A stretch of 64,000 bases of DNA from an uncultured Acetobacteraceae bacterium (GCA_964658135.1 CAZZXZ010000003.1:5914-69913); one strand, 5' to 3'. Shown: positions 31,551-40,067, counted from the stretch's first letter. The notes: generated by a model not told the origin, from the letters alone. Translations and numbers: made by a program.

Positions 31551-33542
31551 CTAGACCCGCATTCCTTCCGCATGACCCTCGGCGGTTGCTGCGAGCAAGG
31601 TGCGCGGCGCCCGGCAGTCGCCGATCTCTGCGCACGACAAGCCCGCCGCGAGCAGAGGAGCCCGCAATTCAGAGCGCGGTGCCCGCGGTGTCGAGTAGAC
31701 GGCCAGCGCAACCTCGTCGATCGTGCCGACTTGGCCCGTGTGCACGTTGCGGCAAGCGACGCGGGCGTTCTCCAAATCGCTGTGTGCCGAGATTTCGCAA
31801 AGCGGGATGATGTCGATGCCTTGCTGGGCGAGACGCCGCGAGATGCCGAGCCCGGTGACCAGGGGAACATCGGCGGCGATCCGATCGCGCGGCGTCACGA
31901 TGACCGTGCGATCGTACAGCCGGTGGAGGAGCTCGGCGAGGGCGTAGGTCCCCTCGGTATGGTCCATATCGAAGAGCACCGCCGTACCGCTCTGCCGCCG
32001 GGTCAAACCCGACAATTCCCGGGTCGCGGTACGCGCATCGAGCAACAATCCCTCTTCTCGCCACTGTTCCGGCAAGCCGTACGGCCAGATCATCGTCGCA
32101 CCGCCGGCCAGTATCGCGTGATGAGGATTCGTTGCCAGGACCTCGTCGGGACCGGCGCGAACTCCGAGCTCGACGATGACGCCGTAGCGACGCGCCTGGG
32201 TCCACTGAAAGTCGTACACGCTGGAGAGCGAGTCGCCGCCGGGCAACAGCGAATGCAGCCGCGTGCTGCCGCCCACCTCGCCGTTGGCGCCGAACAACGT
32301 CACATGGTGCCCGCGTGCCGCCGCGGTCCAGGCGGCCTCCAAACCCGCCACGCCGGCCCCCACCACGACGATTCGCCGGGCGCGCCCGACGTGCCTGGGT
32401 TGCCAGTCCACCTCATCCGCCTGGGCGACTCGGGGATTGTTATCGCAAGCGAGCGGCGCGCCGTCGGCAATCTGTCCCCAGCAGGTATTGCAGGAGACGC
32501 AATAGCGGATGTCGCTCTCCCGGCCCGTGGCCGCCTTGATCGGCCATGCCGGATCGGTCACCAAGGATCGGCCCAGGCCGATCAGTTCGGCTTCGCCACG
32601 CCCGACGATGCCATCGGCCTCGGCGGGATCGGTGATGAGGCCCAATGCCATGACGGGCACGCCGTGGGCATGCGGACGCAGCTGCTGTATCAGAGGCATC
32701 CACGCGCCGCGCGGCCAGTGGCGGTCCGGCACATGCCAGTCCAGAGTGCGTGAATGCGCTCCCTGGCAGAACGTCACGTAGTCGACCTCATTGCCACGAG
32801 TCAGCAGCGCGGTCGATTCAGCCGCCTGGGCAGCATCGATCCCATCCTGCATCCCGTCATCACCCGGAATCTTGATACCGATCAAAAATCGGTTGCTGCA
32901 GGCCGAGCGGATGGCGGCCACGGTTTCGGTCAGAAAACGCATGCGCCCCGCCAGATCGCCGCCGAATTCGTCGTCGCGTCGATTGGAGCGAGACGCCATG
33001 AATTGGTGGAACAAATGGCCGTGTCCCGCGGACAGTTCCACCCCCGAAAATCCGCAGCGCTCGAGGCGCGCCGACGATTGCCCGAAATCGTCGATCATGC
33101 GCAGAATTTCGTCACGCGTCAGGGCGCGTGGTACCGTCCACGACAAGTCATCGGGCAACGCCGAAACGCCGATCGCATCGGGATTTCTGCCACGCTCGTG
33201 CCGGCCCCGCCCAGAATCTTGAATTTGGCCGAGCAGACGGCAGTCATGAGCCTCCACGGCGGCCGACCACCGCTGCAGCCAGCCGACATGATCGTCATTC
33301 CAGACACGGACGTAATGGCCCCGCGTTTGTATACGCGCCGTATTGAGCGGTTCGCTGATGACCATGGCGGCACCTCCCTGCGCGCGGTTGGCGTAATACT
33401 GAATCATCTCGGCGGTCGGGGTCTGATCGAACACCCGGCGCGTCGTCATGGCGGTGTGCACGATTCGATTGCGTAACTGCAGCCGACCGCTACGCCACGG
33501 CGACAGCAGAGCCGGATACAGCGCGGTCGGCAGGGCGCTCAT
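31551..33542 (-). CDS. FMN/FAD/[4Fe-4S] oxidoreductase of the 2,4-dienoyl-CoA reductase / trimethylamine-dehydrogenase family
   Basis: OYE-like N-domain (GFSGVELSAGHGHLFHQF). Cys cluster CVSCNTCWGQIADGAPLAC. C-terminal dinucleotide fold VVVGAGVAGLEAA. ATG 33542 overlaps the MFS stop (ATGA). Confidence 0.82.
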   Translation of the reverse strand: MSALPTALYPALLSPWRSGRLQLRNRIVHTAMTTRRVFDQTPTAEMIQYYANRAQGGAAMVISEPLNTARIQTRGHYVRVWNDDHVGWLQRWSAAVEAHDCRLLGQIQDSGRGRHERGRNPDAIGVSALPDDLSWTVPRALTRDEILRMIDDFGQSSARLERCGFSGVELSAGHGHLFHQFMASRSNRRDDEFGGDLAGRMRFLTETVAAIRSACSNRFLIGIKIPGDDGMQDGIDAAQAAESTALLTRGNEVDYVTFCQGAHSRTLDWHVPDRHWPRGAWMPLIQQLRPHAHGVPVMALGLITDPAEADGIVGRGEAELIGLGRSLVTDPAWPIKAATGRESDIRYCVSCNTCWGQIADGAPLACDNNPRVAQADEVDWQPRHVGRARRIVVVGAGVAGLEAAWTAAARGHHVTLFGANGEVGGSTRLHSLLPGGDSLSSVYDFQWTQARRYGVIVELGVRAGPDEVLATNPHHAILAGGATMIWPYGLPEQWREEGLLLDARTATRELSGLTRRQSGTAVLFDMDHTEGTYALAELLHRLYDRTVIVTPRDRIAADVPLVTGLGISRRLAQQGIDIIPLCEISAHSDLENARVACRNVHTGQVGTIDEVALAVYSTPRAPRSELRAPLLAAGLSCAEIGDCRAPRTLLAATAEGHAEGMRV

Positions 33543-37774: not shown

Positions 37775-40067
37775 CCCAAAAACCGGGCGTGTTGTAGTAC
37801 TTGTTGCCAAACAGGTATGCGGTGCCCCAGTTTTTCATGGTGCAGTTTCTGCACTCCAGCGTCAAAGTCAGGGGTAGCCGGTTGGTGCTCGCACTGACGC
37901 CCAGATCGAGCGTGGTGTACGCACTGTCCGCGCCGGCATCGAGTCCTTGCGTACCGACGTTCTGACTGCCGGTCCATTGCACTCCAATATTCGGAACGAC
38001 CTGGTAGTCGCCGACGGCCCAAGTGTACGCACCGTGGAAAGACGCATTGGCGTGCGGTGTGTAGGAAGGGGTCGCCAGGTTGCCGAAGGCATCCACGATA
38101 CCGCTCCCGCATGAAGGATTGGCCAAACCCGGCGCCGCACGGCAGGAGGCCTGCTGCGACGCCACGGTAACGCTCGGATTGTAGTATTCGGCATTCATCA
38201 AGCCGACGTTCAAGGTCAACGTCAAGGGATCGATGGGGCGCCAGGTCAATTCCGTTTCCAACCCGTAGGCATCGAAGTCGGCCGCATTCGATGTCACGAA
38301 AGAGGATGCCGTTGCGAGGTCGGACAGCAACTGGTAGGACTTGACGTCCTCATAGAAGACACTGGCATTGAACCGTAGCCGGCGATCCAGCCATTCGGAA
38401 CGGGTGCCGACTTCGTAGGACCAGGCCGTTTCGGGCCCGAAGTTATTGAAGGTGGCGGCGGAGAACGCGAGGCCATTCCAGCCGCCGCCCTGAAACCCCC
38501 GCGTCGCCGACGCGTACACCATCAGCTCCGGATCGATCTTGTATTCGAGTGCCACGCGTGGCGTGAATTCTTTCGCAACCAGTTTCGTCGCGTAGCCCAC
38601 CGCTTGAATATCGGCGGTTGTAAACCCAGCGCCCGCTGCCGTGGTATTGGGCGCAGCTTCCAGCGACTTTCGTTCGTCGGTATAGCGTCCGCCCACGGTC
38701 AACGTCAGCGCCCGGGTTATTGCATAGTCGCCCTGCGCATAGATGGCGGCGGATTTGGTTTCATTGATGGTCGTCTCATCGCCGAGGAAGTAGGGAAAGT
38801 AGGGCACGCCGAAGGCAGCGCCCAAATTAGCGACCGCGCCATAATCGTTGTTGTTTTTCTCAAACAAATAGAAGGCGCCGGCGGTGTAGTTCAACCGACC
38901 GGCAAGGTCGCCGGTCCATTTGATTTCTTGAGAGTACTGTTGGTTCTTGAGGTCCTCGGCCAGCGCAAATTGTCCCACCGCGCCCTGATCGTAGGGCACG
39001 GATGGGCCGAATGCCGTATCGGGGAAGTCGATTGCCAGCAGCTGCTTGAGTCCACGGTAACCGGTGATGAGGTTCAGGGTCCCGGCCTCGAAGCCGATTT
39101 TCAAATTCGACATCGCGCCCCAGCTATTCACCTCGACCCCCTGACCCAGACGGCCCTTCGAGCCAGTGAGGTATTGCGCCAGCGCGCCGCCTTCGGTGCT
39201 GAATCCGCTGTAAGCAATGCGATCGCTGCCGTTGACTCCGCCATTCGGCGTGGGTGTATTGAGCGCACTGGCGGCGTTGTTCTGACTCCAGTCTATGGAT
39301 ACATCCCAGGACACGTTGCTATATGCCGCCGGTAAGAAGCGGACTGCTTCGCGAGCGCCATAATCCTTGGTCTTGTTCAGCGCGCGACCAGTGGTCAGAT
39401 CCTCCGCATAGCCATCATCGTTGATGACGAAGGCCGCAAAGCGGGTCAAGATTTGATCGTTGACGGGCACGTCGACGTACCCATTGCCGAAGGTCCGGCC
39501 GTAGGCACCGTAGCCGAACTCGACATCACCGCCAAATTTCTCCTGCGGCTTCTGCAGCGAGACGACCACCGATCCGCCGGTCGAGTTACGACCGAACAGA
39601 GTACCTTGCGGGCCGCGCAGCACTTGTACCTGATCGACGCCGAACAGGGCGAAATTATTGGCATTTTGCCGGCCGATGTAGATGTCGTCGATGTAGGTGC
39701 CGACCTGGGGCTCGAAGGTCGGAAAGGATTGGGTCTGGCCGAGACCGCGAATGTAGTACACGTTGGCCGAGCCGAGACCCACATTGTTCGTCGCCACGAA
39801 ATTCGGAACCACGCGTGCAATGTCGAGCGTGGAACTGATTTGCTGGTCTTTGATAGCCTCGGCTGAGAAGCTGCTCACCGTGAGCGGGACGTCTTGCAGG
39901 TTCTGCGCGCGGCGCTGCGCGGTCACCACCACGTCGTCCAATGTCCCGGCGGCGGAATCTTTGGCAGCCAGGGTATCTGTCCCCGATTCTGCGTTGGCGC
40001 CGTAGGCCAACATTAGGCATGACAGTGCACAGACCAGTCGCACACGATGGATTGCACACAAACTCAT
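37749..40067 (-). CDS. TonB-dependent outer-membrane receptor
   Basis: Signal peptide, then a plug domain (DDVVVTAQRRAQNLQDVPLTVSSF...). A long barrel ends in ...ARVNYKF. GGAGG precedes the ATG. Confidence 0.9.
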   Translation of the reverse strand: MSLCAIHRVRLVCALSCLMLAYGANAESGTDTLAAKDSAAGTLDDVVVTAQRRAQNLQDVPLTVSSFSAEAIKDQQISSTLDIARVVPNFVATNNVGLGSANVYYIRGLGQTQSFPTFEPQVGTYIDDIYIGRQNANNFALFGVDQVQVLRGPQGTLFGRNSTGGSVVVSLQKPQEKFGGDVEFGYGAYGRTFGNGYVDVPVNDQILTRFAAFVINDDGYAEDLTTGRALNKTKDYGAREAVRFLPAAYSNVSWDVSIDWSQNNAASALNTPTPNGGVNGSDRIAYSGFSTEGGALAQYLTGSKGRLGQGVEVNSWGAMSNLKIGFEAGTLNLITGYRGLKQLLAIDFPDTAFGPSVPYDQGAVGQFALAEDLKNQQYSQEIKWTGDLAGRLNYTAGAFYLFEKNNNDYGAVANLGAAFGVPYFPYFLGDETTINETKSAAIYAQGDYAITRALTLTVGGRYTDERKSLEAAPNTTAAGAGFTTADIQAVGYATKLVAKEFTPRVALEYKIDPELMVYASATRGFQGGGWNGLAFSAATFNNFGPETAWSYEVGTRSEWLDRRLRFNASVFYEDVKSYQLLSDLATASSFVTSNAADFDAYGLETELTWRPIDPLTLTLNVGLMNAEYYNPSVTVASQQASCRAAPGLANPSCGSGIVDAFGNLATPSYTPHANASFHGAYTWAVGDYQVVPNIGVQWTGSQNVGTQGLDAGADSAYTTLDLGVSASTNRLPLTLTLECRNCTMKNWGTAYLFGNKYYNTPGFWDARVNYKF

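Follow-up and report, generated by a model that had tools for sequence, protein, structure and literature searches.

The 64,000-nucleotide (nt) stretch of DNA analyzed here (the window; uncultured Acetobacteraceae bacterium, GCA_964658135.1 CAZZXZ010000003.1:5914-69913) carries at 31551-40067, on the minus strand, seven tightly packed genes led by that of a TonB-dependent receptor (TBDR). Together with a divergent gene for a HapK-like protein and a gene for a MarR regulator, we read them, with slightly better than even confidence, as a substrate-inducible locus for the TonB-dependent uptake and conversion of one small, probably carboxylate-bearing organic compound, methylation being an integral step. 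The genes lie almost without gaps, and the same set occurs jointly in many other loci. The members of the locus and the putative regulatory region are (lengths in amino acids, aa):

37749-40067, minus strand: TBDR, 772 aa, operon gene 1 (Pfam Plug and TonB_dep_Rec_b-barrel)
36896-37774, minus strand: short-chain dehydrogenase/reductase (SDR), gene 2 (Pfam adh_short and adh_short_C2)
35687-36865, minus strand: S-adenosylmethionine (SAM) methyltransferase (MT), 392 aa, gene 3 (Pfam Methyltransf_25/11 over part of its length)
35404-35682, minus strand: soluble helical protein, 92 aa, gene 4 (no family)
34735-35394, minus strand: integral membrane protein, 219 aa, gene 5 (no family)
33539-34726, minus strand: major facilitator superfamily (MFS) transporter, 395 aa, gene 6 (Pfam MFS_1)
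31551-33542, minus strand: flavoenzyme with flavin mononucleotide (FMN), [4Fe-4S] and dinucleotide domains, 663 aa, gene 7 (Pfam Oxidored_FMN and a dinucleotide-binding domain)
40068-40222, between the divergent TBDR and HapK-like genes: intergenic region of 155 nt with putative promoters and operator
40223-40534, plus strand: REDY/HapK-like small alpha+beta protein, divergent (Pfam HapK)
40699-41238, plus strand: MarR regulator (Pfam MarR_2)

The seven minus-strand genes had been named in the original prediction, and their coordinates were reproduced from the list of open reading frames (ORFs) and the translations. A recomputation of the spacers by script gave the identical values of -26, 30, 4, 9, 8 and -4 nt, and the earlier domain calls were reproduced with Pfam and NCBIfam. 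The start of the flavoenzyme gene overlaps the stop of the MFS gene (ATGA). The claimed overlap of the SDR start with the 3' end of the TBDR gene is one of two options: ATG 37774 gives a protein of 292 aa and the spacer of -26, GTG 37732 gives one of 278 aa, which is the length of the homologues (278-285 aa), and a spacer of +16; the junction is tight with either start. The proposed single, tightly packed and co-transcribed operon is probable; on a colinear metagenome scaffold (L044) the genes are likewise near-touching.

The conservation of the cluster was followed from the MT, for which 1897 homologues were found, the best 120 being 58-81% identical over the full length. The neighbourhood sample comprised 40 genome loci plus several annotated contigs, and ORFs were clustered across 44 MT-seeded loci. 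The small helical protein directly follows the MT in 41 of the 44; a TBDR related to that of the window is found near the MT in 27 and the membrane protein, as a rule next after the small protein, in 21; the SDR is present in 20, the HapK-like protein in 19 (almost without exception immediately upstream of the SDR, which it adjoins in about 20 loci), a two-domain VOC/glyoxalase-like protein also in 19, MFS orthologues in 17, a LysR regulator in 16 and the flavoenzyme in 14. Scaffold L044 carries, on one strand, TBDR, HapK, SDR, MT, small protein, membrane protein, MFS and flavoenzyme, i.e. eight colinear genes with spacers of 10, -8, 42, -1, 8, -4 and -4 nt; this colinear operon with overlapping stops and starts is seen in L044/L045. 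Because the HapK-like gene lies inside the L044 operon, between TBDR and SDR, it is an eighth conserved member, and with the MarR gene the set comprises nine genes. All seven genes of the original prediction were borne out, but the HapK-like and the MarR genes had been missed, and the invariant core consisting of MT and small helical protein had been overlooked. Co-conservation in related genomes, the touchstone which that prediction had itself proposed, turned out to be strong and the operon is not refuted.

The eight structural genes are shared by three proteobacterial classes. The loci, which span Gamma- and Alphaproteobacteria of soil, bog, lake and marine habitats, belong to Steroidobacteraceae, Halieaceae, Porticoccaceae, Paraglaciecola, Sphingomonadaceae (Sphingomonas), Acetobacteraceae, Caulobacteraceae and Kordiimonas. 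A housekeeping protein encoded in the window has its best named matches, with 70-73% identity, in metagenome-assembled genomes of Steroidobacteraceae, and the source is therefore placed near that family, as an uncultured gammaproteobacterium. TBDR orthologues with 55-70% identity adjoin the MT in Steroidobacteraceae loci. Over all loci, the identity between MT-adjacent TBDRs and the window TBDR varies from 29% to 70%, and therefore different receptors have been recruited repeatedly to the same MT module. Literature searches (gene combination, HapK plus TonB, carboxyl methyltransferase plus ene-reductase, pJE1) returned no paper describing the cluster, and no characterized counterpart was found. 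The carboxyl methyltransferase OPCMT belongs to a mycobacterial family (PMC10193983), which is unrelated to the window MT.

The enzymes that surround the core of MT and small protein in other loci follow two recurring themes. One is enzymes of branched or polycarboxylic acids: MmgE/PrpD, TcuA/fumarate-reductase-like flavoproteins and family III CoA-transferases, further HMG-CoA lyase (above the NCBIfam cut-off), LeuC/D-like dehydratase, HpcH/HpaI lyase, MaoC hydratase and glutaryl-CoA-dehydrogenase-like proteins. The other is C-N hydrolysis or lactam opening, with hydantoinase A/B, a PuuE-like deacetylase, isochorismatase, amidase, nitrilase-type and creatinase-type enzymes. The locus on plasmid pJE1 of Sphingomonas sp. 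JE1 (L049, 21556-46575) ends with a succinate-semialdehyde dehydrogenase; its module has HapK, SDR, PrpD and TBDR on one side and flavin adenine dinucleotide oxidoreductases, hydantoinase A/B and the succinate-semialdehyde dehydrogenase on the other.

The window MT is predicted, from its motifs and its AlphaFold2 model, to be a class I SAM-dependent methyltransferase that has a Rossmann-like fold and binds SAM. Pfam assigns Methyltransf_25 with 78.8 bits, and the Methyltransf_25/11 matches are confined to residues 194-293; the first ~185 aa have no Pfam family. The model (pLDDT 90.5) consists of an N-terminal helical hairpin, formed by helices 15-55 and 73-111, followed by the class I fold. 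Foldseek matched it with probability 1.0 to many SAM methyltransferases, all of them generic small-molecule enzymes (Rv2258c, the phosphoethanolamine N-methyltransferase PEAMT, MitM, BelI/CysG, DsyB), and gave no identity for the N-terminal domain. The best PDB sequence matches are phosphoethanolamine N-methyltransferases. Against NCBIfam, no equivalog was reached: the best match, UbiE/MenG, scored 53 bits versus a cut-off of 158, and BioC 52 versus 185. Motif I is the family-invariant variant D-C-G-A-T-V-G, in which Thr replaces the middle Gly, and D221 and D259, located where SAM is usually contacted, are invariant as well. Many further residues outside the SAM motifs, among them acidic and aromatic ones, are invariant, which argues for one conserved acceptor chemistry.

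Three products or parts had been described as having no nameable family, namely the N-terminal domain of the MT, the 92-aa protein and the membrane protein, and this description stands. For the 92-aa protein no Pfam or NCBIfam family was found, and a relaxed Pfam scan of the family alignment gave nothing consistent. It contains no hydrophobic segment, and a helical protein of ~100 aa also follows paralogous methyltransferases. A homology between the small protein and the N-terminal hairpin of the MT was considered and dropped, as a direct comparison was negative. The membrane protein had been called a protein with six transmembrane segments; its membrane nature was borne out, but the AlphaFold2 model (pLDDT 92.8) has seven helices instead of six. 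It likewise has no Pfam or NCBIfam family, a relaxed Pfam scan of its family alignment yielded nothing consistent, and the search of PDB folds gave no match with E<0.001 and nothing below E 0.07, the matches to rhodopsins (TM <0.4) being meaningless. At 50% identity, its family falls into 792 clusters, nearly all of stand-alone proteins of ~220 aa, with the invariant residues H11, W18, G20, D22, G24, D53, R57, C59 and K149. A relationship with CopD/HemJ-like proteins, considered because of the pattern H-x6-W-x-G in helix 1, was rejected, since hhalign gave a probability of 0.1% against E. coli YebZ; DUF2269 was touched by one of 22 family members (E 0.008).

Several loci (L013/L002, L046, L006, L030, L035) contain two to four paralogous MTs, some with a small helical partner of their own; further genes in these loci encode Cupin_7/DUF4437 proteins and another type of MFS protein, and two-domain VOC/glyoxalase-like genes stand in tandem arrays of up to three. 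Cultured Sphingomonads have paralogous modules of MT and small protein (32-38% identity) on their catabolic plasmids and chromids, including Novosphingobium megaplasmids H1-H6, and Sphingomonad replicons hold up to six copies each. Related clusters are present in the culturable strains Sphingomonas sp. Y57 (L026) and Sphingomonas sp. JE1 (L049) and in Novosphingobium resinovorum (L043). The multiplicity of MT paralogues per locus suggests a diversified family of related pathways. A tentative extension, which we put forward as a possibility of rather low probability, is that MT, helical partner and seven-helix membrane protein form a previously unrecognized module in which methylation is a required activation step for the assimilation of TonB-imported compounds. 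A carboxylate or heteroatom of low reactivity would, for example, be converted to an ester or onium group and then be reduced or oxidized by the Fe-S flavoenzyme or by a KstD/TcuA-like flavoprotein; the paralogues of the module would be tuned to different substrates.

Inducibility is suggested by the regulator. The best PDB matches of the window MarR are PecS (8ylh, E 1.6e-21) and MftR (8ylf), and by sequence comparison it is placed in the UrtR-like (PecS/MftR/HucR) structural subgroup. UrtRs have the invariant urate contacts W24, D68, R75 and H142 in PecS numbering (PMC11602129). Aligned with 8ylh, the window protein retains the Trp, whereas the three other residues are exchanged (D to E, R to L, H to E). 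With three of the four signature residues replaced, urate was rejected as the effector, and the protein should therefore respond to a different compound. The Kordiimonas cluster (L017) has a MarR 53% identical to that of the window, and other loci have LysR or GntR regulators instead. A regulatory role is presumed for the 155-nt divergent region, which contains an imperfect palindrome around ACTTTAAAG (40083-40104). Upstream of the MarR gene there is a 14-nt direct repeat, GC(A/T)TTTAAACGGGT, at 40569-40582 and 40663-40676, 94 nt apart. The palindrome and the repeat are candidate operator sites. Scanning 24-46 kb against Rfam (E<=0.1) revealed neither a riboswitch nor a small RNA.

Combining these observations, the favored reading can be put as a pathway, in which step order, methyl acceptor and redox direction are inferred. 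In a first step, the TBDR, energized by TonB, would import the compound across the outer membrane. The MFS carrier, which is the probable inner-membrane step, would then bring it to the cytoplasm. This protein (Pfam MFS_1, 111.8 bits) had no match among PDB sequences; its weak NCBIfam relatives, all far below cut-off, are the aromatic acid/H+ symport family, the D-galactonate transporter, PcaK and MhpT, and each of these nearest named relatives is an organic-anion:H+ symporter. An organic anion is thus the probable kind of substrate. Third, the conserved pair of HapK-like protein and SDR would perform an isomerization together with the oxidation of a hydroxyl group or the reduction of a ketone. 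The MT would methylate the compound or an intermediate with the help of its obligatory helical partner of ~100 aa, and in about half of the loci the seven-helix membrane protein would take part in this fourth step. Finally, the flavoenzyme would catalyze a two-electron reaction on a C=C/C-C or a C-N bond beside an activating group. The operon would be released by the UrtR-like MarR (LysR or GntR elsewhere) once the compound or a product appears. The products probably feed routes of (branched) di-/tricarboxylates or of cyclic amides, because in other genomes the core is joined to enzymes of these routes.

A number of points weigh against this pathway. For none of the cluster members is there a closely homologous, experimentally characterized relative, so every step is deduced from similarity at the level of families. 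Catabolic routes do not usually include SAM-dependent methylation, which is costly. The window contains none of the accessory catabolic genes seen in other loci; the module could therefore end in a modified product and not in assimilation. The MFS protein could be an exporter. In some loci, membrane protein and flavoenzyme each occur without the other, and thus the order and the partnerships given above may vary. The single transcript, which is probable, is deduced from the spacing, and a scan for consensus promoters and terminators gave fewer matches than shuffled sequence.

The flavoenzyme bears on the strongest alternative. Pfam assigns it to Oxidored_FMN (170 bits); it has the cluster motif CVSCNTCWGQIADGAPLAC (CVSCNTCW...C at residue 348) and a single GxGxxG, at residue 395. 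Its best NCBIfam match, the mycofactocin-type old yellow enzyme (OYE) 2 (TIGR03997), scored 401 bits versus a cut-off of 793, and all other NCBIfam family cut-offs were missed, too. The best PDB relatives are FadH, histamine dehydrogenase (HADH) and NCR. FadH could be aligned to residues 9-481 only, whereas residues 10-670 of HADH align with residues 10-658 of the flavoenzyme in one alignment. Judged from these alignments, the protein is colinear with trimethylamine dehydrogenase (TMADH) and HADH: it has three domains with a degenerate third domain, which is not of the NAD(P)H type and shares the conserved D-x-DH segment with HADH. The cysteine which forms 6-S-cysteinyl-FMN is absent: the PHC Cys of 6de6 pairs with a Thr of AMTT, and the N-terminal FMN segment IVHTAMTT resembles FadH. 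The catalytic FadH residues Glu164 and Tyr166 are not kept either; both are His (SAGHGH vs MGSEGY). The enzyme thus belongs to the FMN/[4Fe-4S] class, as had been proposed, and lies outside its characterized subclasses. Neither the amine nor the enoate subclass can be assigned, because the flavinylation Cys is Thr and the FadH Glu/Tyr pair is His, yet the C-terminal half is HADH-like. The protein probably lacks an NAD(P)H site; the single dinucleotide motif and the HADH-like C-terminal half suggest that its electron partner is probably something other than free NAD(P)H.

In the alternative, which goes back to the original prediction, the locus would take up an amine or quaternary amine, the flavoenzyme being a TMADH/HADH-type C-N oxidoreductase with an external acceptor and the MT acting on nitrogen. 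The colinearity with HADH over the whole length including D-x-DH, where FadH ends at 481, and the single GxGxxG agree with this idea, as do the phosphoethanolamine N-methyltransferases as best matches of the MT, its wealth of invariant acidic and aromatic residues, and the many C-N hydrolases and the succinate-semialdehyde dehydrogenase of related loci. However, besides the exchange of the FMN-linking Cys and the FadH-like IVHTAMTT segment, the operon has no gene for electron-transfer flavoprotein or another acceptor, the MFS relatives are anion symporters and do not include carriers of amines or betaines, BCCT and ABC betaine systems are missing, and methylating an amine which is then demethylated would be futile. 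We consider amine uptake unlikely; the evidence on the earlier idea is divided, the Cys to Thr exchange speaking against it and the HADH-like C-terminal half for it.

The receptor gives occasion to weigh a second alternative. In its sequence a plug domain precedes the 22-strand barrel domain (PF07715 Plug, 63.5 bits; PF00593 TonB_dep_Rec_b-barrel, 125.8 bits; both above cut-off), with a hydrophobic signal segment at residues 3-21, a TonB-box-like DDVVVTA near residue 44 and the C-terminus ...NYKF. All specific NCBIfam models stayed below cut-off: TIGR01783 with 124 versus 223.5 bits, TIGR01785 with 72 versus 317, BtuB with 46 versus 600 and SusC/RagA with 40 versus 368. The earlier exclusion of a siderophore-synthesis, cobalamin, SusC/SusD or opine-metallophore locus was upheld on this ground, there being neither riboswitch nor SusD. 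The TBDR might instead import a foreign metal chelate or a natural aminopolycarboxylate, whose ligand would, in analogy to the acetylation or hydrolysis of imported siderophores, be given a lower metal affinity by reductase and MT so that the metal is freed; the MFS protein would import the complex or export the spent ligand. The best sub-threshold NCBIfam match is indeed a siderophore-receptor subfamily, and the best PDB match is the pesticin/yersiniabactin receptor FyuA. Moreover, siderophore utilization is known to involve single-component MFS permeases and enzymes that modify the ligand, and the PrpD family, frequent in related loci, includes iminodisuccinate epimerase. Yet besides its distance from TIGR01783 the receptor has no signalling extension, the 155-nt promoter region shows no AT-rich 19-mer resembling a Fur box, and the regulators are of the MarR, LysR and GntR types, not Fur, ECF-sigma or AraC. 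Furthermore, there is no periplasmic binding protein, ferric reductase or siderophore-interacting protein, and the neighbours in other loci are enzymes of carbon and nitrogen catabolism. We thus regard the use of foreign metallophores as quite improbable.

The HapK-like protein bears on a third alternative. The HapK-like gene product matched PF11639 with 34.8 bits (cut-off 25), a family with no established function, and the REDY-like PDB entry 2jdj with E 7e-5. The best NCBIfam match of the SDR is the mycofactocin-coupled SDR (TIGR03971; 197 bits versus a cut-off of 300). Mycofactocin-coupled subfamilies are thus the top NCBIfam matches of both SDR and flavoenzyme, which is odd in a proteobacterium; these matches may point to a non-exchangeable nicotinamide cofactor in the SDR and to an unusual redox partner. 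HapK-like proteins and quinol monooxygenases share a small alpha+beta fold class. This likeness, the UbiE/MenG match of the MT, the linkage of the MT to a membrane protein and the self-contained cluster, which has no downstream catabolic genes in the window, would fit the salvage of a cofactor or a lipophilic, quinone-like compound: an imported precursor would be reduced and, in a UbiE-like manner, methylated at the membrane by MT, small protein and membrane protein, and the product would be used rather than degraded. But the UbiE/MenG score is far below its cut-off, Foldseek gave no specific quinone methyltransferase among its matches, and no riboswitch or cofactor-responsive element was found. 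The several MT modules per locus and the variable catabolic neighbours in other genomes fit diversified catabolism better than a single cofactor, so that we hold salvage to be very unlikely.

That the genes are merely adjacent and form no functional unit is scarcely credible: an uninformative scan for consensus promoters and terminators leaves room for it, but spacers of -26 to 30 nt, the same eight genes in colinear order in L044 and their repeated co-occurrence across classes argue otherwise. A modification of steroid rings A/B, considered in view of SDR, alpha+beta protein, KstD/BaiCD-like enzyme and the Steroidobacteraceae loci, was rejected, as the hallmark genes of steroid degradation are present in no locus.

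On the minus strand, 105 nt downstream of the operon, a second tight string of genes extends over 25443-31445. Read-through across the 105-nt gap is possible; the ABC, FtsX and LolA-like genes were rejected as part of the conserved unit, since they are not co-conserved with the MT cluster. These and a flanking gene on the other side are:

30741-31445, minus strand: ABC ATPase
29341-30744, minus strand: FtsX-type permease
28524-29384, minus strand: LolA-like protein
27238-28521, minus strand: probable outer-membrane protein of 427 aa, with no family
second string, minus strand: LytS-type histidine kinase and LytTR response regulator (25443-26177)
41907-42563, minus strand: SET-domain protein with a long Lys/Arg-rich C-terminal tail (Pfam SET, 91.5 bits)

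A small 2-oxoglutarate-Fe(II) oxygenase gene (41284-41877) adjoins that of the SET-domain protein. The G+C content is 0.57-0.62 at 34000-42000 versus 0.63-0.66 in the flanks, and 0.611 for cluster plus regulator versus 0.625 for the rest of the window; the lower value is compatible with horizontal acquisition, although the signal is weak.

TBDRs are the main route for scarce organic compounds in Sphingomonads, Steroidobacteraceae and marine Cellvibrionales, and their substrates are mostly unassigned. The locus is a well-delimited and widespread case, found in soil, peat, boreal lakes, sea ice and ocean, in which a receptor is tied to distinctive enzymes and two unannotated families. Identifying the substrate would give a function to about 800 clusters of membrane proteins and more than 1000 MT homologues, and it could reveal methylation as a step of nutrient assimilation.

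Among known systems, the closest in architecture are the DdvT/DdvK-type loci of Sphingomonads; in Sphingobium sp. SYK-6, DdvT and DdvK reportedly take up the lignin-derived biaryl DDVA by means of a TBDR and an MFS protein. Common to both is a TBDR and an MFS anion symporter beside conversion enzymes and a small-molecule regulator, in TBDR-rich Alpha- or Gammaproteobacteria. In contrast, the window has no genes for ring cleavage or O-demethylation, and HapK-like protein, SDR, MT with partner and Fe-S flavoenzyme have no counterpart there; the likeness is one of architecture. The flavoenzyme shares with the FMN/[4Fe-4S] class (FadH 1ps9; 3k30, 6de6, 2tmd; NCR, BaiCD, BilR) the OYE-type FMN barrel, CxxCxxC...C and the dinucleotide domain; it differs in falling below all NCBIfam cut-offs, in the His residues at the positions of FadH Glu164 and Tyr166, in the Thr at the flavinylation site and in the HADH-like third domain. 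With the UrtRs PecS, MftR and HucR, the window MarR shares the N-terminal alpha-0 helix with the conserved Trp, but not three of the four urate-contact residues, which makes urate an unlikely effector. Tam is a trans-aconitate methyltransferase with the MarR regulator TamR, and BelI and CysG are alkylmalate carboxyl methyltransferases. The likeness to these systems lies in a class I SAM methyltransferase, in the window putatively for a small carboxylate, that is paired with an extended MarR containing the alpha-0 helix, and in the tricarboxylate/alkylmalate-type enzymes (PrpD, TcuA-like, LeuC/D-like, HMG-CoA lyase) of related loci. The similarity to BelI/CysG (PDB 9fce, 9fd3) is at the level of the fold only (TM ~0.63, target-normalized; 17-19% identity), and Tam is not among the best 25 of 37 NCBIfam matches of the window MT; nothing in those systems corresponds to its N-terminal hairpin domain, to the small partner protein or to the membrane protein. 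On present evidence the locus is not a new kind of system, as its architecture resembles Sphingomonad TBDR-plus-MFS catabolic loci and its enzymes come from known superfamilies. What is new is an uncharacterized but strongly conserved gene set with two orphan proteins, whose TBDR, MT, flavoenzyme and MarR fall into none of the subclasses with which they were compared.

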